Part shown: in pieces, positions 340 through 64,000 of the stretch
Layout of the letters: every line of letters begins with the position of its first letter
Numbering within the stretch: position 1 is the first letter of the stretch
Source of the DNA: a bacterium
Lineage (GTDB): Bacteria; Patescibacteriota; Minisyncoccia; Phycocordibacterales; Zambryskibacteraceae
Length of the DNA stretch: 64,000 nucleotides
Assembly (NCBI GenBank): GCA_030649135.1
Contig: JAUSGI010000002.1
Coordinates: 6,294 to 70,293 of the forward strand
Reading direction: 5' to 3'
Notes under the pieces: generated by a model
Seen by the model: only the letters and a program-made list of their open reading frames with translations
Told to the model about the DNA's origin: nothing
The model's database searches: none
Program-made: the position numbers and the translations under genes

Positions 340-341
340 GA

Positions 342-1301: not shown

Positions 1302-1310
1302 TCCCTTACC

Positions 1311-10151: not shown

Positions 10152-10154
10152 CCA

Positions 10155-24133: not shown

Positions 24134-25813
24134 TTACATCGTTTGATCACTTTTCTCAACGACAAAAATTAGACTCAAACCAAAACCTAGATTAATTTTG
24201 TTTTCAATATATTTGAACCAAAAATTCAAGACCTTAAAAAAAATGCCCTTTTTATTCTTGCCCCCCCTAATACTTTCAAAATGAGATTCTCTCTTTAAAA
24301 CTTTATACAAAATCCAATAAGGCAGAACTCCAAGCATATTCCAATATCTCACTTTTATTATTTTCAGCCCCAAATCTTCAAGCTCACGCGAAAGCTCTTT
24401 TTTGCTAAAGCGCCTAAAATATCCCATCATCTTATCTCTCGAGCCATATAGCGAAGGGAGTGCCGGAACCACTAAAATCAATCTCCCCTCTTTATTTAGA
24501 AGAGAGATGGCCTTTATGAGATTTTTTTTGTAGTCTTCAAGGCATTCCAAAACATCAATCATGATAATGTTGTCAAATCTCTTCTGGGAATCATACTGCT
24601 CAATAGAGACTTGATTAATGTCCAATTTACCAAAAAACTTTTCCGATAAATCAACCAATTTTTTATCCGGTTCTATCCCCTTCACCTCTATGTTCTTTTG
24701 GAGAGCCTTGGAAACCAAGAGCCCCAGTCCTGCTCCGATATCAAGAAGATTACCTTTTCTTAAGAAATTTAGAACAAAATCAGCCAGATTATTATTTCTA
24801 AAATCCTCTTCGGGGTTATTAAGATTTGAGTAAAATTCTGTGTGTGTTTTAGCTTGGTAGTCAAAAGTTCTTTTACCAAAAAAATTTCTATACCAAAAAG
24901 CCCAAACAAAAAACAGGAAAGAAAAAAGGATGATTTGGATATGGAGAATAAAACTCAGGTTGAAAGCATCCTCTATACTGACACTTAAAAGGACGAGTCC
25001 ACCGGCCACCGTTCCCTCAAACGCTCCAAAGTTTCCAATTAGATTGATGGGAATTAAACTGGCTAAAGCCGGGAAGACTCCAATAAACGCCGCCTCTATA
25101 AGAGAGAAATCAAACCCGGCAGAAAGTAATATCACCAAGACAAAGAGTGTGTCTAAAACCCAAACAAAAAGCGAGAGTGTGGCAAGAATAGCTAATCTTT
25201 TGAAATTCTTAATCTGCTCAAGAGCGAGAAAGGTTTCTGCCATAATCCGAGAAAATTTATTTAGGAACGAGTTTTTGAAAGAAAGACCGGAAAAAAATCT
25301 ACTTAATTCATGTCGATAAAAAACAATACCCCAAAGGATGACCACGCCAGATATTAAAATAGACACGATAAAAGTTAATGGGGTTGATGCTAAAAAACTT
25401 GGATTCTGACGAAAAATAAAAAAACCTGATATTAAAAAAAAGGTCAATACTATTAAAAGGTCGAAAACTCTAGCCAGCACGAGCGAAGTTACATTTTCTC
25501 CATTCGAGATATTCTTTTCTTCATTAACCATATAAAGGTACGTTATTTCTCCGGATCTAAAAGGCAATATGTTGTTCCAGAAACTATGTATGGAGACTAT
25601 ACTCAATAGTTTTTTTAGGCTAATTTTATTTCTTAGGACAAAACGAAAACGTAAAGTTTTAGCTACCAAATTTAAAATATACAGAAAGAAAGCCAGGACA
25701 ACTATAACGGGATTAATATTTTTAAGAATTTCAAATAAACCACTATCACCACTAAATCGCCATAATAAGTAAGCGACAATAACTGTAGTGGCTGCGGTTG
25801 CAATAATCTTCAT
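24134..25813 (-). CDS. Fusion protein: flippase-like/UPF0104 (lysyl-PG-synthase-type TM) domain plus C-terminal SAM methyltransferase
   Basis: The N-terminal 8-10 TM region has UPF0104-like features. The C-terminal part carries LLDIGAGLGLL and LILVVP methyltransferase motifs. Confidence 0.55.
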   Translation of the reverse strand: MKIIATAATTVIVAYLLWRFSGDSGLFEILKNINPVIVVLAFFLYILNLVAKTLRFRFVLRNKISLKKLLSIVSIHSFWNNILPFRSGEITYLYMVNEEKNISNGENVTSLVLARVFDLLIVLTFFLISGFFIFRQNPSFLASTPLTFIVSILISGVVILWGIVFYRHELSRFFSGLSFKNSFLNKFSRIMAETFLALEQIKNFKRLAILATLSLFVWVLDTLFVLVILLSAGFDFSLIEAAFIGVFPALASLIPINLIGNFGAFEGTVAGGLVLLSVSIEDAFNLSFILHIQIILFSFLFFVWAFWYRNFFGKRTFDYQAKTHTEFYSNLNNPEEDFRNNNLADFVLNFLRKGNLLDIGAGLGLLVSKALQKNIEVKGIEPDKKLVDLSEKFFGKLDINQVSIEQYDSQKRFDNIIMIDVLECLEDYKKNLIKAISLLNKEGRLILVVPALPSLYGSRDKMMGYFRRFSKKELSRELEDLGLKIIKVRYWNMLGVLPYWILYKVLKRESHFESIRGGKNKKGIFFKVLNFWFKYIENKINLGFGLSLIFVVEKSDQTM

Positions 25814-42923: not shown

Positions 42924-44450
42924 TCAAGTAGTTTTTCCGCCCTCCCATCGCGTCCCGATTTCTATCTGGAGACGCTTTCTGCGGTACTCCTCCGAGTTGA
43001 CGCCAAACTCCGCCCATTGTTGCAGTTCCTCGATTCTTTCCGGAGGTACTGTCGTGTTCTTCATGACAGCATTCCTCCAGTTAAAAATATCGGGGTCGAA
43101 GTCTTGCACCAAGTACCCGTCACGCAGAGCCAAATCATGTAGGTTACTGCCGGGCAGAGGAACAGGGATCTTGAAAGAACAGTAATCTGCCCCCGCACCC
43201 ACCAGCCGCCGGCCGAGCTCGATCGAGGACATCATCTCTGCCTCGGTCTCGTCCGGGAAACCGATCATCATGTTGATGGGGCACGTGATACCGATATTCC
43301 TCGCAACCCTCACCAGCTCGACTACATCGAGTCGTTCATGGTTGAGCTTCCTCGTCGCATGCTGGTCAAGAATGCGCTGGGAAGCTGACTCCACCGGGAA
43401 AACGATCTGTGTGAGACCGCAGTCATAGAGGAGTTGCAGGAACTCTACATCGATGACCGGCTTGCCTCCGACGCTTCCCTTGAGAAAGTGCACCAGATTC
43501 ACTCCGTTCACGTCAGCGAGCTTGAGCCCCAGGCCTCGGACTTTCCCGAGAATCTTACGCATCCGCGGCTTGTTGGCCAGGAGCGTATCATCCTCGAGGT
43601 AGACTTTTGTGACACCAAGGCTCTTGAGTATTGAGAGCTCTTCGAACACCCGCGCTTCGGACTTGAAGCGCAACTTGGCGATCCCGCCACTCTCCTCTTC
43701 ATTTTCACTTTCTTTAGAGATGTGGCAGTACGAGCACTTGAAAATACATCCGCGGGATGTTTGCATGTTCCCGGAACGCTCTGGGTCTTTGAGAAAGGCC
43801 CTTCCGCCAGCTGCTTCGGCACGATCGTAATGCATCCAGGGAAGCTTGTGCCATGCCGGGATGGGCAGAGCATCAAGATTAGTGAGCGTATCCCCCACTT
43901 GAGGAAAACGTCTCACGATTCTCCCATTCTGCATGGTGACTGTTCCAGAGACGGCGAGACTTTCCCCCGCTTCCCAGGCTTGGATGACCTCGACGACCAC
44001 CCGCTCACCTTCGGTATTGCAAATGGCATCTACGCCGGCCGCGAGGAACCGTTTGTGAAGAGCTCGGGCGTTAACGCCACCGGCAATGACCAGGATTTCC
44101 GGAGATACTGCCTTGGCCGCCTTGACGACTTCAAGTGCCATCCTGTGCTGCGGAGTGAAAATGGAGCTAAGACCGACAACGTTGTAGCCACCACGAGCGA
44201 TGACCTCACTCATCCGATCGGTCGTCATGCCGATACGGGTGAGGCCGTTTTCCTGCATGACAAGCTTGTCGAAGGTGTCTTCAAGCTTGTCATCCGGCGT
44301 GCCGACATTGGCGTCGAGCAACTCCGACTCAATACCGGCTCGTTCGAGCGAGGCATCGAGATACAAGAGACCGAGCGAACCATCGACACGACGGGCTTCT
44401 CTCTTCGCCAACTGGGTAGGATGGTAAATGAGCAGAGCTTTTGCCTTCAC
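42924..44450 (-). CDS. B12-binding domain radical SAM enzyme (class B rSAM, methyltransferase-like), GC-rich
   Basis: N-terminal cobalamin-binding-like Rossmann region and the radical SAM cluster motif SRGCIFKCSYCH. GTG start preceded by SD AGGGGGG. Confidence 0.8.
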   Translation of the reverse strand: MKAKALLIYHPTQLAKREARRVDGSLGLLYLDASLERAGIESELLDANVGTPDDKLEDTFDKLVMQENGLTRIGMTTDRMSEVIARGGYNVVGLSSIFTPQHRMALEVVKAAKAVSPEILVIAGGVNARALHKRFLAAGVDAICNTEGERVVVEVIQAWEAGESLAVSGTVTMQNGRIVRRFPQVGDTLTNLDALPIPAWHKLPWMHYDRAEAAGGRAFLKDPERSGNMQTSRGCIFKCSYCHISKESENEEESGGIAKLRFKSEARVFEELSILKSLGVTKVYLEDDTLLANKPRMRKILGKVRGLGLKLADVNGVNLVHFLKGSVGGKPVIDVEFLQLLYDCGLTQIVFPVESASQRILDQHATRKLNHERLDVVELVRVARNIGITCPINMMIGFPDETEAEMMSSIELGRRLVGAGADYCSFKIPVPLPGSNLHDLALRDGYLVQDFDPDIFNWRNAVMKNTTVPPERIEELQQWAEFGVNSEEYRRKRLQIEIGTRWEGGKTT

Positions 44451-50891: not shown

Positions 50892-51114
50892 GTGGAGGGC
50901 CTTGTGAAATACGATTTGAGCCTGTTTTTTGTCGATTCTACAGCCCCCTTCAAGTGTTGCTCAAATCGTAATTCAATATCATTAGTATACCCGACATAAA
51001 AATTTCCATCTTTTTGACTCTGTAGAACATAGACGTAGAATTTTTCATCAAATACAGACATGATATTGAATTATTTCACTGGGCAAGTCCAACGATGGAA
51101 AAAACCCAAAATAG

Positions 51115-51967
51115 GGTCACTTTTATCGACTTTCTGGGTGATCACCAGCAGTTTCATTGGATTTCCTCGCTCCTATTTTCTTATATGCGGAAGGTTAAAC
51201 CTTGCGTATTGGTCTTACTTCCATCATAATTCTAGTATGACACGCCCAATTATATTATCAATCGGAGAATTTTATCACATTTATAATCGTGGCACTGAAA
51301 AAAGAAAGATTTTTTTATCCAAACATGACTACGAACGTTTTATAGCTCTTCTCTATCTTTGTAACTCCACTATCTCCGTCCGTATAGACATGCGACGCAA
51401 ATCTTTAGATGAAACCCTCGATACTGACCGTGATAAGAATCTGGTAGATATTGGTAGCTACTGTTTAATGCCCAACCACTTTCATATTCTACTTAAAGAA
51501 AGAGTTGAAAATGGTATTAGCCTATTTATGCAAAAATTAACTACGGCTTATACTATGTATTTCAATAAAAAATACGAACGTAACGGATCTCTTTTCCAAG
51601 GAACTTTTAAGGCAGAGCATGCGGATAAAGACAGTTACTTGAAATATCTATTCGCATATATTCACTTAAATCCAGTCAAACTGATTGAACCCGAATGGAA
51701 GAAGGTGGGTATCAAAAACCGCACAAATGCTAAGCAGTTTCTGAGAAATTACCCTTATTCTAGTTATTTTGAATATACCGGAATCGACAGAAAATGGAAG
51801 ACTATTCTAACGCCTAAGGCGTTTCCAGACTATTTTGATACTACCGATGGCTTTCAGAAAATGATTGATTACTGGCTTGAGTTTAGTTCTGAACAATCCT
51901 AGTGTAGTGCGTAAGGTTTAACCTTGTTCAAAAAGGTCATTTTTATCGACTTTCTGGGTAACTACCA
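51115..51967 (+). mobile_element. IS200/IS605-like unit: Y1-transposase gene flanked by 33-bp direct repeats and subterminal palindromes
   Basis: GGTCACTTTTATCGACTTTCTGGGTGATCACCA at 51115-51147 matches GGTCATTTTTATCGACTTTCTGGGTAACTACCA at 51935-51967. The palindromes AAGGTTAAACCTT at 51191-51203 and AAGGTTTAACCTT at 51913-51925 are subterminal. Confidence 0.5.
51237..51902 (+). CDS. tnpA: IS200/IS605-family Y1 (HUH) transposase / RAYT-like
   Basis: YHIYNRGTEKRKIF, HUH motif LMPNHFHILL and the catalytic Tyr region GSLFQGTFKAEH..YLFAYIHLNP. Start reassigned to ATG 51237. Confidence 0.75.
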   Translation: MTRPIILSIGEFYHIYNRGTEKRKIFLSKHDYERFIALLYLCNSTISVRIDMRRKSLDETLDTDRDKNLVDIGSYCLMPNHFHILLKERVENGISLFMQKLTTAYTMYFNKKYERNGSLFQGTFKAEHADKDSYLKYLFAYIHLNPVKLIEPEWKKVGIKNRTNAKQFLRNYPYSSYFEYTGIDRKWKTILTPKAFPDYFDTTDGFQKMIDYWLEFSSEQS

Positions 51968-51973
51968 ATAATC

Positions 51974-53257
51974 TCATTGAGTTGGTGTGTCTGGGGTCTT
52001 TTCCGCATTTTCAGTTTGCTCTTCTTTTTTCATAAGTTCAAATGCTTGGCCGAGATATCTCAATACATGGTGCCCGACAAGATAATGGAATAGGAGGCCA
52101 ACCAGTCCGGCAAGAATGACGAGCAAGAGGAGATAAACGAGATTGTCTTTGATAAATTTGCTAATAAGCGATGACGACGAGACTGCCGCTGTGACATCTC
52201 TGATATTGCCGGCCTTATCGAAGACTCGCACCATAACGTTTAAGTCGCCGCGAGCGAGCGGTATCTGAAAAGGACTCTCCGTTTGGACAAAAACGGGGGA
52301 GACGGTAACTGGTTGGCTTTTATCAATTATTCCGACCTCATAATAATCCACTCCCGACAGATTATCCGTAGTAAAGAAAGAGATTATCGACCGTTCGACC
52401 AAATTCACCGCTGCCAACAAATAACTAACTTCCGGTTTGAAGTCTGCCGGCGGGACAGTGTCAATTCTTATCAGAAAATGCCCAGTCGTCCCCCAGACTC
52501 CATTTTTATTGGCTTTAATATGAAAATACCATAAGCCATCGGCCAAACTTTCAAACGCTTCTGAAGTCTCGTTGGCAGTAATGGAGTTCTCTGGGATTGT
52601 GGATGGTTTATCATCCAAAATATAACTAAATCCCGAAACGCCGGCATCCCGATCCCATGAGATTACCGGACTGTCATTGTTGTACCACTCACCCTGGAAC
52701 GGATGGGTCTCCGAGAAGACCTTCACCCCTTCCGGAGCCTTCGGCACAATCGCATATTCCGCCCTGCCCAACTCTACTTCGGCTTCCGTACCTTGGCCAT
52801 CATTCAAGAGTACTTTTGAATTAGCGCCAAAAGAGACCGTTGCCCAGCCAGTCCTCTTGGCTTTAAAAGTGATTGTCCCCACTAAACCGGAGTTCGTAGT
52901 AATACCGTCCGGTATGACACCGACATAACTGGCCGTACCGCGAGTGTTATCGTAACTTGGCGGTTCCACCCAGACACCGATAATAGAGAGGCCGCTCGAC
53001 GGTTTTATGATTTCCAGCTTATCTTTGTCGAAGTTAACCCTGATTTCAATACCATTGATTTCGGCGCCGTCTGTATCGACTAGAATCGGGATATTGAAGG
53101 TTGAGTTCTCGACAAAGCTGGCGGCACGGGGAGAGAATGAAAGTTCGATTTTCGGAATTAATTGCGAGACATCCAGAGAGACTGTCTCGGCGTATGTATG
53201 AGACCAGATGAGAGCCGTGAGAACAAACAGTAGAAGTATTCTTGAAATACGTGCCAT
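51974..53257 (-). CDS. Cohesin-domain surface protein with signal peptide and C-terminal TM anchor
   Basis: Signal peptide, then a cohesin-like beta-sandwich (INGIEIRVNFDKDKLEIIKP...GLVGTITFKAKRTGWATVSF), a second conserved domain (VMVRVFDKAGNIRD) and a C-terminal TM helix. Confidence 0.6.
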   Translation of the reverse strand: MARISRILLLFVLTALIWSHTYAETVSLDVSQLIPKIELSFSPRAASFVENSTFNIPILVDTDGAEINGIEIRVNFDKDKLEIIKPSSGLSIIGVWVEPPSYDNTRGTASYVGVIPDGITTNSGLVGTITFKAKRTGWATVSFGANSKVLLNDGQGTEAEVELGRAEYAIVPKAPEGVKVFSETHPFQGEWYNNDSPVISWDRDAGVSGFSYILDDKPSTIPENSITANETSEAFESLADGLWYFHIKANKNGVWGTTGHFLIRIDTVPPADFKPEVSYLLAAVNLVERSIISFFTTDNLSGVDYYEVGIIDKSQPVTVSPVFVQTESPFQIPLARGDLNVMVRVFDKAGNIRDVTAAVSSSSLISKFIKDNLVYLLLLVILAGLVGLLFHYLVGHHVLRYLGQAFELMKKEEQTENAEKTPDTPTQ

Positions 53258-53266
53258 TATTATTAT

Positions 53267-54244
53267 CTAATCCCCGAGATCCTTCTCAGCGTGGACAACT
53301 TCCTGATGGATGATTTTTTCAGCATCTGCCAAGTTCTGCTTTAGGCGATGCGTGATTGTCTCTTCTTCCGCGGTTAGCTTCCGTTTATCGCGGGTCCGCT
53401 CCAAAATATGGAGGCTATCACCGACATCCTCTTTCAGAAGTTCAAAAGATTTTCCCGTCAATCGGTCTATATTATGCAGGTCTTTCCTCATATCCTTCCG
53501 CAATCTCGATACATTGCCCGCCCCCTTCGCGGCAGTATGAGTGAGAAGGAATATAAGCGCGACAATGAGAGCGAGCAGGAAGAATAACGCCAGAAGCCAG
53601 CTTATGGCAGTTTTAAGCGACGGGGTGCCAAATGGAAGAGTGTCCGCTTCTTCCTCCTTATCAAGCGTTCCAAGATCAATGGCGGGTGCTAAATTGTCTT
53701 CTCCATCTGTACCATTAGTCTCGAGCACTGCTGGCGGAGTGACGGGAAGTTGCTGCTTTTGCTCCAGCGCAAACGAGGCAGTGCCGAGGGTCTTAAGAAT
53801 ATTGGTGCCATAGCCATCGTTGGCAAGAAGTGAACCCGATGTCAAGCGAATGAGGGCGTTACCCGTACCGACTACCTTAAAATTGACACCCAAAACCCTG
53901 CCGTTAGATTCGCTAAAGCCGGGGTTAGGCACCACGCCCTCGAAAGTCACCGTGCCGCGAGAGTTGGAAAATGACGGTTCCTGGATCCAGAGCGATAGCA
54001 CCGACCCAATCTTCGATATGGAAGTCACCTGCAGACTGTCCGCCGGGAATGACAGCACGCCGGAAACGGCATTGATGGACTGCTGGGGACTTGAGACCAT
54101 GATGCGCACCGAGAACGTATCCCCGACGGAGTACGTCCCAGTTAAGGGAGAGAGAAAAATAGTATCGGCAAAAACGCTCTTCGGTGATACGAGGACTAAA
54201 AGAATCGTGAGCGTAAAGAGCGCCTTAAGAGTAAAAGAACGCAT
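53267..54244 (-). CDS. Cohesin-domain membrane protein with cytoplasmic coiled-coil tail
   Basis: Signal peptide, a cohesin-like domain (INAVSGVLSFPADSLQVTSI...GRVLGVNFKVVGTGNALIRL), a TM helix and a charged helical C-terminus. Confidence 0.55.
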   Translation of the reverse strand: MRSFTLKALFTLTILLVLVSPKSVFADTIFLSPLTGTYSVGDTFSVRIMVSSPQQSINAVSGVLSFPADSLQVTSISKIGSVLSLWIQEPSFSNSRGTVTFEGVVPNPGFSESNGRVLGVNFKVVGTGNALIRLTSGSLLANDGYGTNILKTLGTASFALEQKQQLPVTPPAVLETNGTDGEDNLAPAIDLGTLDKEEEADTLPFGTPSLKTAISWLLALFFLLALIVALIFLLTHTAAKGAGNVSRLRKDMRKDLHNIDRLTGKSFELLKEDVGDSLHILERTRDKRKLTAEEETITHRLKQNLADAEKIIHQEVVHAEKDLGD

Positions 54245-54945
54245 AACAATATTATAATACTAATCAAAACACTTGCATAATGGTATGGACCAGCTGTGGA
54301 TGCATCTCTATGATTACCTGCCTTATCCACCGCGCGAATGTGTATCTTCTGGAAAGTCTCTAGGTGCGATAAAACTAAGGGTGATTCTGTTTCTATCCAA
54401 TTTTCATCTCTAGGACTAAGAAACCAAGTGGAAGCCGCCTCGTAGCGCTCGACGCCCGTGCCCTTGTCTTGAGCGGTAAACGAAATGAAATGTCTGCCGC
54501 CAAAAATATCCGGCGATGTTGATATTATAGGCTCAAAAGGTTCCGGTGGTACCGTATCTTCGGCTATTTCCGTTTGTCGTAAAGAGAGCCTGACCGAAAC
54601 GCTTTCTCCGGAACCGTCATTTTTATATGCTTTTATGTTGTTGAAAGAGAAGCCGGCAATATTTGAAGCGTCAAAAGCAAAAAGCCGATATTTCCCCCTA
54701 AATCCGCCCGGTGTTATACCGGCAAACGGGATGGTATTTCCAAGCAGCTCCGGCGAGGTAACCCAGATAAGAACGGCTGAATTGCCGGTATAGATATTTT
54801 CCACGCTTACATTTGTTGGCAAAACTAAAGTTCCCTCAATGGCATTGATTGTTTCTGTACCCGTATCAACTTCAATCACGGCAGTAACTGCTCCAGCAAA
54901 GAGTGGTAGAGAAAAGAGAATGATTATGATAAGAATTTTTCTCAT
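54196..54945 (-). CDS. Cohesin-like surface protein with C-terminal TM anchor
   Basis: Signal peptide, a cohesin-like domain, the conserved block HIRAVDKAGNHRD shared with the 51974 protein, and a C-terminal TM helix. Confidence 0.5.
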   Translation of the reverse strand: MRKILIIIILFSLPLFAGAVTAVIEVDTGTETINAIEGTLVLPTNVSVENIYTGNSAVLIWVTSPELLGNTIPFAGITPGGFRGKYRLFAFDASNIAGFSFNNIKAYKNDGSGESVSVRLSLRQTEIAEDTVPPEPFEPIISTSPDIFGGRHFISFTAQDKGTGVERYEAASTWFLSPRDENWIETESPLVLSHLETFQKIHIRAVDKAGNHRDASTAGPYHYASVLISIIILLCVLLLLRRSLRSRFF

Positions 54946-54946
54946 A

Positions 54947-56287
54947 CTAGCCAGTCCAATTAAACGCCATTATAGAGAAGTCTACGAGATTGACCTTGCC
55001 ATCGCCATTGATATCAGCACTCTTGGGCGGAGCTGGCCTATTATACCAATAGGCAACAATGGAAAAGTCCACGAGGTTGACACGGCAATCGGCGTTCGCA
55101 TCTCCTCGTTTATCGCACTTTTGGGGAGTTTTGGCAAAAAGAATACTGATGTTGCCGACAACGAAAGGCACTGCCAGGCTGTACGGGCTTATCTCATTTG
55201 CTTTAGCAGCTTTCGACTTGGTGCTATGGTCGCCATACTCGAGTGGTGTAGTATCAAAGTTGTAGAGATATATCCCGTTCACATCTGCCGGAGTTTTGGC
55301 GAAGAACTGCTGGTCGGAATTTATTTGTATTGTTACTTCGCTTTGGTGAGCTACCTGACCGAATATGGTAATGTCATCCCCTTTTCTCACTTGCGATTTA
55401 TCCACAGCCACAGTCGGCGCTATGAATATGCCGGTAATATCGGTGGTCACTCCTGCGGTTACGCTCACCGGGAATGTCAATAAAGATGACCTATTACCTT
55501 GATTGTCCTCGCTATATATGGAAAAGAAATAATTGCCGGCAGTCAGATTGGTAAGTGATGCCTGGAAATTGGACGTGGCGTCAGCAATTGTTGTGGCAGA
55601 CACTTGGGCATCTTTAAGGATAGTGATGGGTCTTCTCGGATATGCTCGGCCGGAGAAATTGACCCCGCCTGTAGCATAGGTCGTCACGCCTCCTCCACCA
55701 CCACCACCACCCCCACCACCTCCGCCTCCTCCGCCATCATCATCGTCGTCAACCGGTGCGGTGGGGGTAGCGGAAACCTCGGTAGAAGTGGCAATGGTAT
55801 TATCCAGAGCATCCAAAACCCTGACAACGAAGTAATATGTGGTGCCGGCAGTAAGCCCCGTGCGCGTGGAAGCAAGTACGTCACCAACATCTGTATAAGT
55901 ATATGCACCGCCGGCAGTAGTGGACTGACCCACCGAATATCCTCCTACCGCCCAGCCAGTCGAGGCATCCGCGGTCGTCCAAGTGAGTGACACTTGCTCG
56001 GCACCGGCGGTGGCCGTCACGGCAGGAGTGGAAACAAACGGAAAATAAAGAAAGCCACCAAAAAGTTGATAGAGACTGTTGGTGGTTGAAGTGCCAATCG
56101 CCATTTGGGAAATGACTGCGTTTAGTCTGAAACTAGTGGAAGTAGAGTATCCGCCGGAAAATAACACGGGGTTAGAGACCGTATAAGTATCGGAAGAAAA
56201 ATCCTGCGCATAGGCGGCGTTGACGGTGAGAAAAAATAGAAAACATAAACTTAGAAGCGTTAGAAATCGTACTTGTGGAAAAAACAT
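54947..56287 (-). CDS. Secreted FN3 / Ig-like protein with C-terminal type-I dockerin
   Basis: Signal peptide, a fibronectin-III-like domain (LTWTTADASTGWAVGGYSV...TYYFVVRVLD), a D5-G17 linker and two dockerin Ca-binding repeats (DANADCRVNLVDFSIVAYW and DINGDGKVNLVDFSIMAFNW). Confidence 0.7.
   Translation of the reverse strand: MFFPQVRFLTLLSLCFLFFLTVNAAYAQDFSSDTYTVSNPVLFSGGYSTSTSFRLNAVISQMAIGTSTTNSLYQLFGGFLYFPFVSTPAVTATAGAEQVSLTWTTADASTGWAVGGYSVGQSTTAGGAYTYTDVGDVLASTRTGLTAGTTYYFVVRVLDALDNTIATSTEVSATPTAPVDDDDDGGGGGGGGGGGGGGGGVTTYATGGVNFSGRAYPRRPITILKDAQVSATTIADATSNFQASLTNLTAGNYFFSIYSEDNQGNRSSLLTFPVSVTAGVTTDITGIFIAPTVAVDKSQVRKGDDITIFGQVAHQSEVTIQINSDQQFFAKTPADVNGIYLYNFDTTPLEYGDHSTKSKAAKANEISPYSLAVPFVVGNISILFAKTPQKCDKRGDANADCRVNLVDFSIVAYWYNRPAPPKSADINGDGKVNLVDFSIMAFNWTG
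55689..55746 (-). repeat. Low-complexity tract encoding DDDDD-GGGGGGGGGGGGGGGGG
   Basis: CCTCCACCACCACCACCCCCACCACCTCCGCCTCCTCCGCC...ATCATCATCGTCGTC on the plus strand. Confidence 0.8.
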
Positions 56288-56347
56288 ACTAAGTAATTAT
56301 ACAACATAGTAACTGTGCAGAATATATAGTACCGAGTACTGAAAGCC

Positions 56348-57089
56348 GAGAGCTTTAGACTCTCACTAATACTGTATACTTATAGATATCTCCCAAACAT
56401 GAGAAAGGAACCTATCATAACAAACCATTATTATCACATTTATAATCGAGGAGTGGATAAGCGTGACATATTTAGCGATATAAAAGACCTTAAACGTTTT
56501 AAAGAAAGTGTAAAACAGTTCAATCAAGTCGATGGCATAGGTAGCCTGGAACTATATCGCAAATCCGTGAGAGCTTTAGGCTCTCACTTTGAATTGAAAT
56601 CGAAACCGATTGTGGATATTGTCGCCTTCTGCATAAATCCTAATCATTTTCATTTTATCTTAAAACAACTGGAGGACGGCGGAATAGCAAAATTCATGCA
56701 GAAATTACTCGGTGGATACACATATTACTTTAATCAGAGACATGCACGTTCTGGTTCATTATTTCAAGGAACATTCAAGTCTAAACTAATCAACCACGAT
56801 GACTATTTTAGAAAAATATTTGCGTATGTAAACCAAAATTATTCTGTTCATAACATACCAAAAAATAAATCAATTTTTATTTTTGCAAGCAATACAGAAT
56901 ACGAGAGTGGGCATTTTGATTTTGTTTCTAAAATCGAAGGACAGGAAATGTTAAAAATTTTTGGTGGAAAAAATAATCTTAAAAAACACTGCGAAGAAAT
57001 TATATCTATTATTCGAAAAGAACGTGGCAAAACTTCTCTAGAAGAACCAGACGAACTGCCTATGTGAGTGAGAGCCTAAAGCTCTCACT
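56348..57089 (+). mobile_element. Second IS200/IS605-like unit: Y1-transposase gene flanked by about 20-bp terminal inverted palindromic repeats
   Basis: GAGAGCTTTAGACTCTCAC at 56348-56366 and its reverse complement GTGAGAGCCTAAAGCTCTCAC at 57069-57089 match at 19 of 20 positions. Each forms a hairpin. Confidence 0.5.
56399..57067 (+). CDS. tnpA: IS200/IS605-family Y1 (HUH) transposase / RAYT-like, diverged paralog of 51237..51902
   Basis: YHIYNRGVDKRDIF, INPNHFHFIL and GSLFQGTFKSKL..IFAYVNQN. Confidence 0.75.
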   Translation: MRKEPIITNHYYHIYNRGVDKRDIFSDIKDLKRFKESVKQFNQVDGIGSLELYRKSVRALGSHFELKSKPIVDIVAFCINPNHFHFILKQLEDGGIAKFMQKLLGGYTYYFNQRHARSGSLFQGTFKSKLINHDDYFRKIFAYVNQNYSVHNIPKNKSIFIFASNTEYESGHFDFVSKIEGQEMLKIFGGKNNLKKHCEEIISIIRKERGKTSLEEPDELPM

Positions 57090-57101
57090 AAACAAACGAT
57101 C

Positions 57102-57632
57102 TTATAGGAAGAGCCAGGTTTTTATTATAGGAGAAAGCCAGGATTCTTGCTCACGAAGAGCGGTCACTTCATAGAGAAATCCCTTATGGACAAACCAGAC
57201 TTCCCAAGTCTCACCGAGCTTAACACTCTTGCTATAGAAAGACGTGGCGAGCACGCCATCAAGATAAAAAGTGGAGGGATTCTGTTTGATGCCGGACGGC
57301 ACGTCCAGCAAGAAACGCTTATCACTTATCTTTTCCTCGCCATAGGGAACCACAAAAATCTGGAAACCCATTTTTTCGTCTTTATTTTCAAAAATAAAAG
57401 TCTTTGCCCCATCACCCTCATCGAACTCTCTTGCAATTGTGCCTGCCGGATAGAGCAGGGAGAAAATGTATCGTTCGCTTCGATATTCGTGCCACCCATC
57501 GGGCACGTCTCGCACGGCACCCGCTGTCCTGTTCTCGTCGTCTCCACCACGCTTTTCCGGTAAATAAAAAAATGCTCCGACAATAAGCCCGAGGGTTATA
57601 ACAATACCGACCACAATGCTTGTGTATTTCAT
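57102..57632 (-). CDS. Hypothetical N-terminally membrane-anchored protein
   Basis: Start at ATG 57632 (MKYTSIVVGIVITLGLIVGAFFY), followed by a single TM helix and a soluble domain. Confidence 0.4.
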   Translation of the reverse strand: MKYTSIVVGIVITLGLIVGAFFYLPEKRGGDDENRTAGAVRDVPDGWHEYRSERYIFSLLYPAGTIAREFDEGDGAKTFIFENKDEKMGFQIFVVPYGEEKISDKRFLLDVPSGIKQNPSTFYLDGVLATSFYSKSVKLGETWEVWFVHKGFLYEVTALREQESWLSPIIKTWLFL

Positions 57633-57748
57633 ACTTTTACACATATAATTATATCACCGCACACCTTGGCACGAAACGGTGATATACTTTAAGAGAGTGG
57701 GTGGGTGGTCGACCCCACAAGAAAAGATTACGAGTAATGAATTAAAAA

Positions 57749-57928
57749 ATGAAAAAACTTTTGCCTATGGGCCTAATCGTAGTGGGGTTAATCGTGGTGG
57801 CATTCTTAGTCGCAGGGACAAATCAAACTTTTGCAAAAAAACCGACACCGCCACCGGATACCTCAACGACAACACCGCCGACTACCTCAACGACCACGAA
57901 ACCAGCGGTGTCTCCAATGGACCCATAA
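57749..57928 (+). CDS. Candidate small secreted/membrane Pro-Thr-rich peptide (59 aa)
   Basis: MKKLLPMGLIVVGLIVVAFLVAGTNQTFAKKPTPPPDTSTTTPPTTSTTTKPAVSPMDP. It is followed by a perfect palindromic terminator. Below the ORF-track size cut-off. Confidence 0.35.
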   Translation: MKKLLPMGLIVVGLIVVAFLVAGTNQTFAKKPTPPPDTSTTTPPTTSTTTKPAVSPMDP

Positions 57929-57953
57929 ATTCCACGCTATTGAATCTCCAAAC

Positions 57954-57989
57954 CAAAATACCACGTTTAAACGTGGTATTTTGGTTTTT
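57954..57989. terminator. Perfect 28-nt palindrome AAAATACCACGTTTAAACGTGGTATTTT plus T-run (bidirectional)
   Basis: Lies between the small plus-strand ORF and the stop of the convergent 1025-aa gene. Confidence 0.7.
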
Positions 57990-58010: not shown

Positions 58011-61000
58011 TTATTGCGTGTAATAGACCTTCGCCTGAATATGGTCCAAGTTTATTGCAGGAAACTCTCCACCACCTAGAGAGTCAGCGTTAATTCTCAA
58101 TCTAAAATTGGCATCGGAAAATTCCGTATCCGCCCAGATTCTGCCCCACTTGTCAGTGGCGCCTCCTAAGGTATAAATAACGTCTTCTGAAGTAGTTAAC
58201 TCCCCCGTATCATAACCGGATGTTGTATAAGTTGGTCCCCCATCCCACGAAAGTTCCACACCTATGATACAAGAGGTGCAATCCACGTCTTTAACCTCGG
58301 CCTTTACCTCTATGCCGTCTATCGTCGCCCCAGCCGGAATACTAAAAGAAAAATTATAATAATCCTGTTCCTGGTTTAACGTAATTTCTACCGCATAATC
58401 ATTATTTGAAGAAAAGGCGCTGGAACCGCTTCCCCACTGATTATGGTCCTCCCCAGTAGCTGTAGGTGATTTAAGCCCAGTATCACCCGGGCCGCCACCG
58501 CCACTACTACCACTGCCATATAAAACCACCTTCCCATTTAGAAATTTAATAGTAGAACCTTCAAAGAGACGCAGGGTGCGCGCCGCGGTGCTGTTGCCAG
58601 TCACAAATTGCTTGATAGCTCCATAACCCTCCAATGCTCCGGCGAAGGCATAGGCACGGAAGAAGTAGGTAGTATCGGCAGCAAGCGAAGCGATGCCGCT
58701 ACTGAAAGAGCTATTGCTTGCAAGCGCGCCGAGTGTGGTAGTCGCCGCAACCGCAAGCGTCGAATCAGTACCGTAGGCAAAACCATGCTCTGTAGCATTA
58801 TCTCCTCCCGTTTTGGTGCCGTTAAGATTGGCAGAGTTAAAGCCCGGGGTGGCAAAATTGGTGGTGACGGTGGGAGTAATAATATTCTCTTCCTCGGCAC
58901 TTATGGTATAAAAAGTGGAAGTGGCATTTTGGTTATTATATTCTGTCTGAATCCAGTCATACGAACGAGCGGTACTTGAGATTCGAACTTCGTCTATAAC
59001 ACCACCGAAGAAAATATTGGTGCCAAAAGCATTAGACCCTTGGCCCAAAAGAAGGTTGTTCGTGTTGACTTCAAAATCAGTGCTAACGGTAGAACTAGCA
59101 ACCCGCACGCCGTCCACATAATAATTCATAATTGAGCCAGTATGCGTCACAGCCACATGCTTGAAGACGTCCGGCGCCGTCGAAGTGGCAAAAGTGGTCG
59201 GTTTCCCTGCCCAGTCAAAGACGTACCCACTCCCCGTCTGAATCATTTCATAGGCGGCGAGCTTGGAAACAAATGGATGCGCCGGAAGTGTGGAAGAGGC
59301 GGTAGTCCATACGGGAGTCGTACCGTCATGCCCAAAAGCGCTGTAAAAAAGACTTTTGCCGTCACTTTCAAGAGCCGCGTCAGCGGACTGAGCAGCTGCG
59401 GTAGCATTCGGCTGACCGGTGCCAAGGTTAATCCACGACAGCGCGGGAGTTGTACCGTCGAGGGTTGAGGAGGCGTAAGAGTAGCTTTCCGTAGCACCAC
59501 TGAACATAAACGCCGCGTGGTACATATAGTCTCCAACGATTGTAGAGTCATTAAAAGAATGATCCGTGGAGCCGGTGGCTTGGGGGTCAGCATCATTAGT
59601 AAATGCATCGGTGGAAGAAAGATCAAGAGGCATATCCACGCGGGCGTAGTTGGATAAAGAGTTGGTCCCCAAACCACACATACCTGCTATATAAAGTCGG
59701 TCACCGTTCGTATTAAGACCAGCCCCACATCCTTCCGAAGCGGTTCCCGCAGGAGGAGTGTTATTGGGGTCTATCCAGCCAGTCCAGTCACTGCCGTCGA
59801 TATTAATAGAGGCCACCATATCATTCTCGGTACCACCGGTGAGCATCAGAGCATAGAAATATGCTCTCTTGCCTGTAACCACGACATCAATACTCGAGGA
59901 TTCCGCGGCACCTATACCAGTCGGGTTTGCGGGATTTTTCCAAGTAGATATGGCGCCACCGAGAGTTGATGTGGCATAGCTGAAAGTGGCTGTCGTACTG
60001 TCGTTGTTTAAAACTGCGTACCAGATGTACTGCCCATCGGAGTCTACGCCGATAGAGCTTCCGTCGGTCGAGGCACAGGCACCAGTCGGTGAGGTACCAA
60101 CAGCCCAAGCGGTAACAGAAGAACCACTAAGAGTCGAGGAAGCGGTCTTAAAGGCATCTGTCGCTGTCGTACAATTGATATTTCCATAGTAGATACGCTC
60201 ACCGACGACAACTGAATCCAATTGACTGTATTCGTCACCCCCAACTCCCGCTGGCGCGGTGCGAGTCACCCATGGTGACATGTTGGTTGTCGGCTTGCTT
60301 GAAGTACTGGTGGTTTGCACCCACGCTTCTATGGTACCGGTGTTTAGAATGTCGAGGTCAGCGTGGTCTGTTACGGTAGAGACGTCATTAACACCGTCGA
60401 AGGTATAGGCAGGACCAAATTTCCCTACATTAGCGCCAGCTGTGGCACCGGAGACCGAACCATTTTGTGCCGTGCCGGCAGAATCGCTATTGGAAGAACC
60501 TGTATCGTCCATGTGCCAGACACCGACGAATGTCCCTTCCGTTGTGGCATCCCATGTGCCGGAAACATCTTCGGTCGGCGTAGTCACACCTGAATTACCG
60601 TAAAACATATAGATAGTCGTGTCGTTATCGAAATCCAGAGTCGGAACTTCCACCCACATGATTACCTCTCCCGTGGTAGGAGTATAGCGTTCCACTTCGT
60701 GTTTAAGTTGAGACGACCCCTGAGTGTCCGTTGCAAATACAATATCGTCTCCCCCGAGGTCGGTCACATGACCACCACTACCATCATCCTCCTTAAACTC
60801 TGCCTCGGTAAACGACATCAGAACCGGAAAGCCGGTGAAGTTGGCTGTCCCGATAACCTGCGCGTTTTGGATAGTAATAGTACGGCGGTAGGTATAACCA
60901 TTGTCGAACGAGGCCTCCGCCCTTTTCACCTCAAAGCCGAGTTCTATTTTCTTATCGGAAAAAGGCAGTTTAATCGTTAGCAGCACGGGAGAGAATACCC

Positions 61001-61088
61001 ACACAAAAATGAAAAGAAAGACAAAGGCACTGCGTATGAGTCTCTGCGATAGCCGGTTCGAGCGCAATGTTTGATGTAAAAAATTCAT
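58011..61088 (-). CDS. Giant (1025 aa) extracellular DUF2341 / LamG-like (concanavalin-A-like lectin) domain protein
   Basis: N-terminal TM/signal; YTYRRTITIQNAQV...FPVL, typical of DUF2341; the LamG hallmark FFGGVIDEVRISSTARSYDWI; FN3-like and Ser/Thr/Gly-rich regions. Confidence 0.6.
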   Translation of the reverse strand: MNFLHQTLRSNRLSQRLIRSAFVFLFIFVWVFSPVLLTIKLPFSDKKIELGFEVKRAEASFDNGYTYRRTITIQNAQVIGTANFTGFPVLMSFTEAEFKEDDGSGGHVTDLGGDDIVFATDTQGSSQLKHEVERYTPTTGEVIMWVEVPTLDFDNDTTIYMFYGNSGVTTPTEDVSGTWDATTEGTFVGVWHMDDTGSSNSDSAGTAQNGSVSGATAGANVGKFGPAYTFDGVNDVSTVTDHADLDILNTGTIEAWVQTTSTSSKPTTNMSPWVTRTAPAGVGGDEYSQLDSVVVGERIYYGNINCTTATDAFKTASSTLSGSSVTAWAVGTSPTGACASTDGSSIGVDSDGQYIWYAVLNNDSTTATFSYATSTLGGAISTWKNPANPTGIGAAESSSIDVVVTGKRAYFYALMLTGGTENDMVASINIDGSDWTGWIDPNNTPPAGTASEGCGAGLNTNGDRLYIAGMCGLGTNSLSNYARVDMPLDLSSTDAFTNDADPQATGSTDHSFNDSTIVGDYMYHAAFMFSGATESYSYASSTLDGTTPALSWINLGTGQPNATAAAQSADAALESDGKSLFYSAFGHDGTTPVWTTASSTLPAHPFVSKLAAYEMIQTGSGYVFDWAGKPTTFATSTAPDVFKHVAVTHTGSIMNYYVDGVRVASSTVSTDFEVNTNNLLLGQGSNAFGTNIFFGGVIDEVRISSTARSYDWIQTEYNNQNATSTFYTISAEEENIITPTVTTNFATPGFNSANLNGTKTGGDNATEHGFAYGTDSTLAVAATTTLGALASNSSFSSGIASLAADTTYFFRAYAFAGALEGYGAIKQFVTGNSTAARTLRLFEGSTIKFLNGKVVLYGSGSSGGGGPGDTGLKSPTATGEDHNQWGSGSSAFSSNNDYAVEITLNQEQDYYNFSFSIPAGATIDGIEVKAEVKDVDCTSCIIGVELSWDGGPTYTTSGYDTGELTTSEDVIYTLGGATDKWGRIWADTEFSDANFRLRINADSLGGGEFPAINLDHIQAKVYYTQ

Positions 61089-61101
61089 ATAAGTTTACTG
61101 A

Positions 61102-62088
61102 TCATTGGCTGGCGTGCGAAAAAAATTCAAGCGCTATGTTCGATACTGCATGCATCATACGCGCCGCCTGTTCCCGTTCGACAATGTCGTCATTTATCCC
61201 TCTCACCTCAACCATGACGGTTATAAGATATGGCCGGTTCGGGAGATAAACGATACCGGAATCGCTATATGAGTTAGTACTGGGACCCATGCCGTATTTA
61301 TGGGGGAAAGGAATCGTTTCTGGAACCGGCTGTCGCAAAAAATCTTTAAACTCTGCGTGGTTTAATAATTCAAGGATAAGTTCCGAGTTTTCCCTATTAA
61401 GATAACTGGCGGTGTAAAGCGCTCGTATTGTCCGGGAAAACTCTTTCGAGGTTACCTCCCCTTTTTCATTAAACAAATCATCAAGACCGAGTGCTTCCTG
61501 TAGGGCGCCTAATTTTGATTGAGGAATATTTCTCGCCAGGATGTTATAGGCAGTGTTATCGGAACGAATTAGAAGCTCTTCTAAAAGTTTCTCTACCGTA
61601 AACTTGGTACCAACCGGTTGCGTATGGATATTGGATGATGCACTCGTACGATCCCCTTCTTCAAGTGCTAAAGTCTGCCCGCGTGTCCAAGTTCCAGCTT
61701 CAATCATTCCCATCACGGCAAACGCCATGGGGATTTTGGCTAAACTCTTGGGCACGAAGCGATTCTCCGGATTGATATTAATATTGGCGCCAGTGTTTAG
61801 AAATTCGATGTATATCGAAATTCTCATATCTTTCTCAGATGCGACAAAATCGCGTAACCGTTCGCGCAGTGGCTGTAAGGTAGAGAGAAAATGTTCCTGC
61901 GGGACAAGATGCCGCGCCACATCAATGAGTGGATATTTTTGCTGTAATTTTTCTATGTTTTCACTCCCCTGACCACCATTGAATACATAAGTGCGGAACA
62001 CAATAAGGACAAGCGCTAGTAAGAGAATGGAGCTTGCTATCCGCCACTGTTTGAGTGCTGTCTGTAATTTATCTTTATCCTTCATCAT
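61102..62088 (-). CDS. Class A beta-lactamase-like serine hydrolase (membrane-anchored)
   Basis: SxxK (KSLAK), SDN loop (IRSDNTAYNIL) and a KTG-like KYGMG motif, with an N-terminal TM helix. Confidence 0.6.
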   Translation of the reverse strand: MMKDKDKLQTALKQWRIASSILLLALVLIVFRTYVFNGGQGSENIEKLQQKYPLIDVARHLVPQEHFLSTLQPLRERLRDFVASEKDMRISIYIEFLNTGANININPENRFVPKSLAKIPMAFAVMGMIEAGTWTRGQTLALEEGDRTSASSNIHTQPVGTKFTVEKLLEELLIRSDNTAYNILARNIPQSKLGALQEALGLDDLFNEKGEVTSKEFSRTIRALYTASYLNRENSELILELLNHAEFKDFLRQPVPETIPFPHKYGMGPSTNSYSDSGIVYLPNRPYLITVMVEVRGINDDIVEREQAARMMHAVSNIALEFFSHASQ

Positions 62089-62091
62089 TTT

Positions 62092-64000
62092 TTATTGGCT
62101 GGCTGAAGATTCTGGTTCAGGTGTGATTTCGGGCTCTGGAGCGGGCTCTGGAGCCGGTTCAAGAGCCGGTTCGGTCGTCGGTTCTGGGGTCGGTGTTACT
62201 TCCGGTGTAGGTTCGGGAGTTGGCTCTGGCGTAGGTTCAGGGGTCGGTTCCGGTTCCGGAGTTGGTTCGGGAGCAGGTTCAGGGGTTGGCTCTGGTGTTG
62301 GTACCGGCTCCGGTGTAGGTTCTGGGGTTGGCTCGGGAGCGAGTTCTGGCGTAGGTTCTGGAGTTGGAGCTGGCGTTGGGATAATGCTCTGTCCTGCAAG
62401 CATCGCCGCGAGCTGGTCACCGGTAACACACACTTCTGTGCCGTCAGATTTTTTCACACAGAGATTATCCGTATGAACCTCCTTCGCGAAGAACTTTGTA
62501 ACGCCGTTTGTGGCATCAGCCAGCCACACAGTAATGCGCGCAAAGATGTTACTAAAGAAACTTTCAGCGAAAGATTCCGAAGCTGGCGTGGAACTTGCGG
62601 TTGTCGAGGCAATAGTGGCGAGATTGAGGTCAAGCTCTTTGAGCGCATTCACAGTGACGGAGAGAATAGCGGTTGAGTTTATTGTTTGCGCAGTACCATC
62701 AGGATTGAAGTACGCGAGTTGCGGACTGGTTGAGGCTACTTCTTCGGCAATGAAACCCCAGTGAGTGCTGGTTGAAGTGTTGTCATTGTATTTGAACGAG
62801 ACAGGTCGGAGAGTGCGTAACATCTCCAGACCGGTTTCCGGTAACGAGTTGATACTATTTTTAAAGCGGGCGGAAGATGCGTTACAGGTGTCGCCTGTTT
62901 GGGTGGTAATTTCCAATGTTGTAGTATCAATACATACCGAATTATCGGCCCCGGTAACTCCGCTCAAGCCATTGATAGCTACAGTACCGTTAACCGAGAG
63001 AGTTCTCCACGGCGTGCTGGAGCTGATGCCTGTGAGAATACTGGTGGCGCCAGCTCCTTTGGTAATAGTAAACGCAACATTTGTAGAAAGGTTGGTGGAA
63101 GATGCGATGTTGAAAGACTTGTTAGTAGAGAGATAACCGATAGACCAAGCATTTTCGTCATTGGCAAATTGGAAGTTTGCATCGCCCGTGTTGGCACTAT
63201 TACCTATGGTCGTCAGACCGTTACTGTCAATATTGAAGACCGTAGTAGTAGCAAAGGCAGATGTGGAACTACTGATAGTAAAGAGTGGTACGGTCCCTCC
63301 GGATTTTCCCGCAATTGATAATCTTCCCCAGGGTGTCGTTGTGCCGATGCCAATGTTCCCATTCGTTGCCAAGAAAATAGTAGAGGTGGCAGACAAAGTG
63401 CTGGCGCCATTGTAGTACGGGAACTGTCCGGCTGTGCCGGTGATACCAGTAATTGCCCCCGTGCCATTACCCTGCAAAAGCCCCGTGAGAGTTCCCGCCC
63501 CTGTGCCTCCATTTTCCACAGTCAAGTCTGCCGTAAGAGTAAGTCCCGCGAACGTAGGTGAGCTTGCTTGTTTAACAGCTTGGTCGAACCAGTCATCGAG
63601 AGTGGGGGCGCCAGTGACGGTGAAAGCTTTGCCATTAACTGTGAGAGACGAAGTAAAAAGATTAGTTGAACTGGCAGTAGTGGAAAATAAATTAGTCGTA
63701 GTGGCATTAGTAGTAGTGCCCCTAGTGGCGACAAAGTTATCTATAACACTTGGGAGAGCAACAGTTGAGGAGGCATAGAAAGCAGTTTTGAACCAAGTTG
63801 GAGTAGTAGTGGAGTTTGTCGTAGTGCTATATGTGGTGTCGGATGTCCATGGCCATGTGCCACTGCCGCTATCATCCGCTTCGCAACCGAACTCTCCACC
63901 GGCCCAGGTGAGGACGTTGTTGGTTTGGCAAGTGGCAAGACCGGCGCCATTAAAGAGAGCGGTGTAGAGGTTCGATGAAGATGCGGTGGTGGAGAAGAAG
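62092..64000 (-). CDS. Tail-fibre-like surface protein with peptidase-S74 intramolecular chaperone domain and C-terminal TPEP-repeat tail; 5-prime end beyond window
   Basis: The reading frame is open from 64000 to the stop at 62092. It has Gly/Thr/Ser-rich beta-helix-like repeats and the S74-type block [28 protein letters not shown]. The tail contains about 20 TPEP repeats. Confidence 0.6.
62095..62385 (-). repeat. Imperfect tandem repeat (period 12-18 nt) encoding (T/A)PEP repeats
   Basis: GGTTCNGGNGTNGG-type units recur on the plus strand across about 290 nt. Confidence 0.75.

Follow-up and report, generated by a model that had tools for sequence, protein, structure and literature searches.

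A probable phage-tail-fibre-like surface fibre with an internal S74-type chaperone at the head of a conserved gene cluster in Patescibacteria

The stretch of DNA analysed here, referred to as the window, comprises 64,000 nucleotides of contig JAUSGI010000002.1 from a member of the Zambryskibacteraceae (Patescibacteriota). At its end lies the 3' part of a minus-strand gene (62092–64000; at least 635 codons plus the stop codon), which runs without a stop up to the window edge and has its 5' end beyond it. This gene probably encodes a surface fibre of a Patescibacteria cell (candidate phyla radiation, CPR; Parcubacteria/Paceibacteria-type) that resembles phage tail fibres, is encoded on the chromosome, is exported through the Sec pathway and stands at the head of a conserved cluster of genes for surface proteins. 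The visible portion would then amount to no more than the C-terminal half of a large exported protein; homologues are 500–3700 aa long. A scan of one genome per species yielded 127 relatives, of which the best 80 were examined. About 67 of these 80 come from metagenome-assembled genomes labelled as Patescibacteria (Harrison-, Giovannoni-, Vogel-, Kaiser-, Taylor-, Campbell-, Zambryski- and Nomurabacteria, among others), and the complete 752-kb Campbellbacteria genome CP011215 contains four S74 loci. In the annotation pipeline PGAP the homologues carry the name 'tail fiber domain-containing protein', with taxon labels such as Patescibacteria, Minisyncoccia and Kaiserbacteria. The closest relative, at locus L167 (59% identity), likewise runs off the end of its contig.

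The protein has a Peptidase_S74 or intramolecular chaperone autoprocessing (ICA) domain at aa 375–465 (62605–62877, minus strand; residues are numbered from the first one visible), delimited with Pfam, AlphaFold2 and Foldseek. An earlier sequence-only reading of this DNA had recognised an S74-type block in the partial open reading frame (ORF), and Pfam agrees: PF13884 matches aa 375–427 over profile positions 1–55 of 58 (E=1e-10, 42.1 bits against a cutoff of 22), with the quoted block inside the match. The autoproteolytic Ser-Lys dyad, whose conservation that reading had named as a point to check, is intact. It has the form S-x4-K (S375-S-A-R-F-K380), with S375 (62875–62877) as the predicted nucleophile and K380 (62860–62862) as the predicted base, and 'SSARFK' coincides with position 1, the start of the Pfam profile. 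An alignment of 19 homologues shows no exception at either residue, conservation is at least 90% among 56 homologues, and a regular expression finds the dyad in 61 of the 67 Patescibacteria homologues. The equivalent residues are S911/K916 in endoNF and S587/K592 in the eukaryotic protein MYRF (MyRF) (PMC8326128). MyRF is cut directly before the Ser, and the substitutions S587A and K592A abolish cleavage (PMC8326128); the predicted scissile bond of the fibre is A374|S375.

Structural comparison points in the same direction. In an AlphaFold2 model of the monomer covering aa 320–540 (221 aa), pLDDT exceeds 90 over the ICA core, and the top Foldseek matches are the ICA domain of MyRF (7dc3, E=8e-5), GA-1 (3gud) and endoNF (3gw6). 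A further 264 viral ICA proteins matched structurally in BFVD at E<=1e-3. A profile built from the homologues retrieved tail fibres from the PDB (8jov, 2.9e-9; 6f45, 1.7e-6) together with MyRF (7dc3, 0.02). The likeness to phages reaches into the shaft that precedes the chaperone, since the PHROG tail fibre family phrog_1980 matches aa 110–458 (E=1.9e-12). This shaft (aa 1–374; 62878–63999, minus strand) is rich in Thr, Ser, Gly and Asn and displays a 'GIGTTTPW' motif. It contains two Cys pairs, C24/C39 and C356/C372, the latter just ahead of the predicted cleavage site; C372 (the 'C53' Cys) is invariant among aligned homologues.

The ICA domain is not C-terminal, as it is in phage fibres. It is internal, as the sequence-only reading had remarked, and is followed by 170 residues beyond aa 465, of which 75 are folded and 95 form a Pro/Glu/Thr tail. 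The folded part (aa 466–540; 62380–62604, minus strand) is a lineage-specific module composed of an amphipathic helix, a β-hairpin with a predicted C514/C524 staple and a short helix. Its helix has the consensus SFAExFFxNIFARIxxWLADAxNG, and the hairpin and short helix read LCVxxxDGxxVCVTxDQLxxLL with two nearly invariant Cys. The module is retained across three alignments of homologues, and AlphaFold2 assigns a pLDDT of about 90 to the hairpin and the helix. Beyond them the homologues diverge: close ones end in comparable P/E/T/A-rich tails, whereas other paralogues have a DUF5011/Bact_surface_Ig-like domain in this place. When 1.84 billion representatives were searched exhaustively with HMMER for the 75-aa module, 986 clusters matched at E<=1e-3, of which 290 reached E<=1e-10; the proteins concerned are up to 5111 aa long and have the module at a median distance of 104 residues from their C-terminus. 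As a side observation, two of the retrieved proteins (P0268 and P0275) contain 12–13 tandem copies of the Cys-hairpin part, so that the hairpin can also exist alone as a repeat unit.

The extension after the chaperone separates the family from its viral relatives. We counted the residues following the GFIAEE motif in the 67 Patescibacteria ORFs and in the 80 best IMG/VR viral loci. The median is 243 aa (minimum 158) in the former and 55 aa (maximum 123) in the latter. The module is covered in none of these viral loci, and their matches stop at about residue 160 of the 221-aa query at the latest, although the scan included a pattern taken from the extension. Matches from genomes outside the CPR (Bacteroides, an anammox bacterium and a Woesearchaeote) are virus-like in this respect, with 57–85 residues after GFIAEE.

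The last segment of the protein is an acidic Pro-rich (T/A)PEP tail (aa 541–635; 62095–62379, minus strand), of about the length estimated in the sequence-only reading. Its 95 residues are 42% P, 23% E and 18% T; its DNA consists of imperfect tandem repeats with units of 12–66 nt, and the protein ends in ...PEPESSASQ. Inspection of the fibre sequence revealed no LPXTG motif, transmembrane segment, hydrophobic segment or other anchor after the tail, and the succession typical of sortase-anchored Gram-positive surface proteins (Pro-rich region, LPXTG, hydrophobic segment, charged tail) is not found in the fibre. With no anchor behind it, the role of a wall-spanning linker that had been suggested for the tail stays unproven. 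Signs of export come from the homologues, 21 of 38 of which, among those complete at the 5' end, have an N-terminal hydrophobic segment; the one at L162 begins with MRFLKIKKTKAFCIVLFCVGLLLLF, a clear signal sequence. DsbB, a thioredoxin-like protein and SecA are all encoded within the window.

We favour the following course of events. The fibre would be exported via Sec, and its three Cys pairs would be oxidised outside the cell. The S74-type ICA domain would set three chains in register and nucleate the folding of the Thr/Ser-rich shaft, whereupon the S375/K380 dyad would cut between A374 and S375; the fibre would then act at the cell surface in concert with the products of neighbouring genes. 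The domains, the conservation of the dyad, the fold, the contrast in architecture with viral proteins, the taxonomic range, the synteny and the export signals of homologues are shown by the data, whereas trimer formation, cleavage, the disulfides and adhesion are inferred. We argue for cleavage because the dyad is strictly conserved. The C-terminal fragment, in turn, probably does more than assist folding, for example by staying attached or by serving as an anchor or spacer, because the module and the tail (an Ig-like domain in paralogues) follow the chaperone, unlike in phage fibres; with folded and conserved parts in this position, the fragment is presumably not simply discarded.

If the S74 domain acted only as a clamp for trimerisation and folding, no cut would be made and the C-terminal tail or Ig domain would be the distal working tip of the fibre. 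In favour of this, Ig-like DUF5011 domains, which are typical parts of adhesins, are C-terminal in about 26 of the 67 homologues, and one would not expect a cell with a reduced genome to throw folded domains away. By contrast, a Ser-Lys dyad that is invariant or almost so would be difficult to account for if it had no catalytic role, and the MyRF substitutions show the same two positions to be needed for cleavage. We therefore regard a pure clamp as quite improbable.

The tension between the conserved dyad and the conserved parts behind the chaperone leaves room for another scheme, in which cleavage separates two functional halves as in MyRF: the C-terminal fragment would stay in the envelope or on the PsbP-fold or cohesin proteins described below, and the N-terminal fibre would be released or repositioned after trimerising. 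The precedent is MyRF itself, where trimerisation-dependent cleavage at an internal ICA domain detaches the N-terminal part from an anchor at the C-terminus, and both the strictly conserved dyad and the conserved, folded region after the ICA domain fit it. Moreover, the module appears from sequence comparison to follow a second, unrelated self-cleaving chaperone of the Peptidase_G2 type (as in phi29 gp12), so that its association would be with cleavage and not with S74 in particular. Some module matches in giant CPR proteins (P0241, P0220, P0225, P0229, P0231, P0252, P0271 and P0281) lack S74 and contain instead the region D[YIL]AE...GRVPVKVNLEGG...GD...PG.G.KA. One member of this group passes the Pfam Peptidase_G2 cutoff (27.1 bits against 25), and the profile of the region has as its top PDB match the phi29 gp12 autochaperone 3gqh, at a weak E=0.014, aligned from the first residue of the chain. 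However, this single Pfam match and the PDB hit are all that links the module to G2, the partners of the C-terminal fragment are only predicted, neither a transmembrane segment nor LPXTG nor a known wall-binding domain follows the ICA domain, and the N-terminal hydrophobic segment of many homologues could itself be the anchor. On balance, a release switch of this kind seems unlikely. Confirmation of the G2 link would mean that the module accompanies two unrelated self-cleaving chaperones.

The favoured reading of a cellular surface fibre also has points that weigh against it. If the protein is cleaved, the module and the tail would leave together with the chaperone, and their conservation would be hard to explain were the chaperone disposable. 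The Cys hairpin is seen by regular expression in only 36 of the 67 Patescibacteria homologues, indicating that the C-terminal extension is heterogeneous. The gene is seen here only from its 3' end, without the region that would encode a signal peptide, and the AlphaFold2 model is that of a monomer. The dockerin and cohesin genes described below are syntenic in a subclade (~10 loci), not in the whole family. Finally, no experiment on any member of the family was found in the literature searched.

The sequence-only reading had left two options for the locus, a domesticated fibre-like adhesin set and a remnant of a prophage or tailocin. According to the latter, extended here to extracellular contractile injection systems (eCIS), the gene would encode a tail fibre, relic or still active, from a phage-derived particle, and its neighbours would be cargo or moron genes. 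The S74 domain and the shaft do match phage tail fibre profiles, published work on S74 concerns phages, eCIS and giant viruses, RAYT/IS200-like genes are close by, and the DNA beyond 64000, upstream of the gene, lay out of reach. But the surroundings are cellular. Genes in the window include those for GatB, Obg, MYG1, DsbB, a thioredoxin-like protein, SecA, a Wzy_C protein, transaldolase and proteins of the PfkB and HAD families, and about 40 kb are occupied by nucleotide-sugar, aminotransferase, glycosyltransferase, methyltransferase and radical-SAM genes. Only the fibre matches a phage structural family among the 10 window proteins scanned against PHROGs, and Pfam identifies cellular genes in the rest of the 64 kb. 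The window contains no tRNA gene or Rfam element that would mark an integration site, and sheath, tube and baseplate genes are absent from it and from the flanks of the homologues. These flanks encode GreA, LysS, FtsI, MurE, RuvX, L19, GAPDH, transketolase, Obg and GatB; upstream of the closest full loci there are housekeeping genes (GreA, LysS, RsmH, FtsI and MurE at L162). In addition, the family occurs at least four times in a single 752-kb genome, the post-chaperone extension is missing from the best viral loci, and, instead of tail parts, cohesin, dockerin and PsbP-fold proteins are encoded in the conserved neighbourhood. Judging by the DNA up to 64000 and the flanks of homologues, we therefore rejected an origin from a prophage, tailocin or eCIS as highly improbable. 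The gene is probably a normal chromosomal member of a multi-copy family, and the idea of a domesticated fibre, that is, a phage-tail-fibre-like protein used by the cell, is upheld by the cellular context and the Patescibacteria homologues. Automatic 'tail fiber' or S74 matches in CPR bins should accordingly not be taken as prophage signals.

The fibre gene is followed on the minus strand by genes for a hydrolase and a giant exported protein, with intergenic gaps of 3 nt and 13 nt. The same three genes were found independently on a 5.9-kb Logan contig that was located by exact-protein look-up with the hydrolase and ends before 64000; a 38-mer from the end of the window had no exact match in JGI metagenomes. 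The hydrolase (61102–62088; 328 aa) has an N-terminal hydrophobic anchor and matches the entire Pfam Beta-lactamase2 profile (E=1e-36). It had been described as class-A β-lactamase-like. The fold, the membrane anchor and the motifs S-L-A-K, S-D-N and K-Y-G (in place of K-T/S-G), which align with those of β-lactamase 6v4w, hold up. The class does not: the protein scores 80.4 bits against the NCBIfam bla_class_A cutoff of 200, and the equivalent of E166 was not identified in it, so that we place it only in the broader Beta-lactamase2 fold family and rejected a bona fide class A enzyme. Its PDB relatives include the PBP-A-like Tll2115, and PGAP names it 'serine hydrolase' only.

The giant (58011–61088; 1025 aa), called a 'DUF2341 domain-containing protein' by NCBI, has an N-terminal hydrophobic segment and is lectin-like. 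Both domains attributed to it earlier score above their Pfam thresholds: DUF2341 with 35.9 bits (cutoff 23.4) and Laminin_G_3 with 52.4 bits (cutoff 27.6), the latter over profile positions 62–151 only. Its LamG domain is apparently split by an insertion of ~375 aa, as the 300-aa LamG protein of L004 aligns to aa 186–265 and aa 641–722. Within the region of aa ~186–722 the insertion contains a '...Y...A(S/T)STL...W' unit repeated four times or more, pointing to a β-propeller-like structure. The giant also includes an fn3-like domain (aa ~720–857; 58518–58931, minus strand), delimited with phmmer and blastp. The same domain forms the C-terminus of the protein encoded directly after the S74 gene in nine loci (L002, L005, L007, L010, L011, L014, L162, L163 and L167; E=1e-14 to 1e-42), while at L004 and L166 the gene in this position encodes a LamG protein. 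In related loci the gene after the S74 gene often overlaps it by 4 nt. Between the stop codon of the giant and the next gene downstream there are a palindrome of 19+19 nt without mismatches, AAACCAAAATACCACGTTT/AAACGTGGTATTTTGGTTT, and a hairpin that, with its T-run, resembles a terminator (57843–57890 and 57950–57987). These elements may end the fibre–hydrolase–giant transcript; promoter and terminator scans gave no signal above the shuffled expectation.

The three genes had been presented as a set, and this did not stand up to comparison across genomes. A β-lactamase-fold gene is found near S74 genes only in L162, L006 and L008 and is absent from the closest relative, L167, which led us to reject the trio as a general operon-level functional unit. 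As judged from gene order, the conserved unit is larger than the trio and overlaps it only partly; the recurring partners of the fibre are the fn3-like domain of the giant, a PsbP-fold protein and a dockerin/cohesin set, the last two encoded at 51974–57644. The commonest recurring neighbour is the 180-aa PsbP/Mog1-like protein (57102–57644, minus strand), which has an N-terminal transmembrane helix and lies downstream of the S74 gene in ~21 related loci. It has no match in Pfam, NCBIfam or PHROGs. Its AlphaFold2 model (pLDDT 88.5) resembles PsbP 2xb3 in Foldseek (5e-6, probability 1.0, TM-score ~0.5), followed by Apa of M. tuberculosis (5zxa, 8e-4), and is predicted to adopt the α-β-α sandwich of the PsbP-type fold.

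The dockerin protein (54947–56287, minus strand) is secreted and combines fn3, poly-Gly, Big_6 and dockerin parts (Dockerin_1, 32 bits, cutoff 22.9). Its linker (aa ~180–205, between the fn3-like and Big_6 domains) consists of five Asp followed by ~16 Gly (DDDDDGGGGGGGGGGGGGGGG). The gene is syntenic in L006, L009, L010, L012, L014, L030, L162, L163, L167 and L169. Adjacent to it are three genes for mutually homologous cohesin-like proteins of 249, 325 and 427 aa (51974–54945, minus strand); as read from the sequences, all three have a signal sequence at the N-terminus and a transmembrane segment at the C-terminal end. The 427-aa protein (51974–53257) reaches 27.3 bits for Pfam Cohesin against a cutoff of 24.1, so that neighbouring genes encode a dockerin and a cohesin, both above their Pfam thresholds. 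The cohesin-like genes are likewise syntenic with the fibre gene in related loci; dockerin and cohesin-like genes follow in the same order in L006, L010, L012, L030, L167 and L169 and lie upstream instead in L163. We considered whether the fibre itself carries a dockerin or cohesin and rejected this, as neither domain is recognisable in full-length homologues.

Within the cluster there is also a plus-strand gene for a RAYT/IS200-like Y1 transposase (56399–57067; Pfam Y1_Tnp, with NCBIfam REP_Tyr_transpos below cutoff). Homologues of it come and go near S74 genes, being present in 16 loci. A REP-like palindrome, GTGAGAGCTTTAGGCTCTCAC, occurs in three copies flanking and inside the gene (56348–56367, 56567–56588 and 57067–57088). 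A second RAYT-like gene, 42% identical to the first, is located at 51060–51902, and a 50-nt direct repeat that is 80% identical lies at 51110–51159 and 51930–51979; the two genes bracket the cohesin/dockerin block. We envisage the cluster proper as composed of the fibre, a lectin-like exported protein with an fn3-like domain (here the giant), the PsbP-fold protein, the dockerin protein and the membrane-anchored cohesin-like proteins, whereas the hydrolase and RAYT-like genes would be lineage-specific insertions. Such a cluster probably builds an attachment structure, and its role is likely to be attachment to a host cell or substrate.

Several further observations concern the family and its surroundings. 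S74 fibre genes of this clade are often broken at contig ends, by scaffold gaps or by apparent frameshifts (window position 64000; L001; L162 at ~9990–10008; L163 at ~10000–10194; the start of L167). This suggests that repeats or paralogy hamper their assembly, and the lengths deposited for the family are therefore often underestimates. Several S74 paralogues of 2000–3300 aa (L004, L021, L026, L033, L059 and L063) begin with a conserved helix-turn-helix-like motif, 'K.FIS...AA....Y..DYI.QL.R', and adjoin a block of GatB, Obg, MYG1, DsbB and thioredoxin-like genes. This block is partly or wholly homologous to window positions 1–3094 (all five genes in L060), which here lie 60 kb from the fibre gene. 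The glycan region (~6100–50900) encodes a Wzy_C/TPR protein (6100–8148), an LPG_synthase_TM–methyltransferase fusion (24134–25813) and a B12-binding radical SAM enzyme (42924–44450), and could glycosylate the neighbouring Thr/Ser-rich surface proteins.

The literature searches turned up no paper in which Patescibacteria are connected to S74 or tail-fibre domains. The domain family and its automatic annotation are already known; the internal chaperone, the lineage-specific module, the possible second chaperone type and the synteny with PsbP-fold and cohesin/dockerin genes appear to be undescribed. Little is known about the way in which Parcubacteria-type CPR cells attach to hosts or surfaces, and the attachment experiments that our literature searches brought up deal with type IV pili in Saccharibacteria. 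The locus offers a concrete candidate, with multi-copy phage-derived fibres, a predicted cleavage site, an extra module and conserved partner genes, and it would add to MyRF and eCIS a further use of the self-cleaving ICA domain in cells. More speculatively, Patescibacteria might have turned phage-type self-cleaving chaperones (S74 and apparently Peptidase_G2) into a maturation switch for giant surface fibres, with the module (~1000 clusters) keeping or docking the cleaved fragment. Together with the PsbP-fold protein and a cohesin–dockerin scaffold, this would amount to an undescribed host-attachment apparatus of Parcubacteria-type episymbionts, a suggestion that we make tentatively.

Parts of the locus can be compared with known systems. 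The hydrolase belongs to the same fold family as class A β-lactamases and PBP-A-type proteins (Tll2115), with which it shares SxxK and SDN, but it has KYG for KT/SG, is membrane-anchored and falls well below the class A score. Non-cellulosomal cohesin–dockerin assemblies similarly combine a secreted dockerin protein with membrane-anchored cohesin-like proteins; here, by contrast, there are no glycoside hydrolases and the fibre has neither of the two domains, and its physical link to the scaffold is hypothetical. S74 tail fibres of eCIS and tailocins are also phage-derived fibres in cellular genomes, but sheath, tube and baseplate genes do not accompany the gene described here. Phage fibres and tailspikes (endoNF of K1F, GA-1 gp12, T5 pb1; PF13884/MEROPS S74) share with it the S-x4-K dyad, the fold and a Thr/Ser-rich shaft before the ICA domain. 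Unlike them, the patescibacterial gene is chromosomal and multi-copy, has no virion genes nearby and encodes a chaperone that is not terminal. MyRF, a eukaryotic membrane-bound transcription factor, resembles it in placing an ICA domain with a Ser-Lys dyad inside the chain and provides the best structural match (7dc3). MyRF, however, has a DNA-binding domain before the ICA domain and a transmembrane segment after it, whereas the patescibacterial protein, which has neither, is fibre-like and would be extracytoplasmic.

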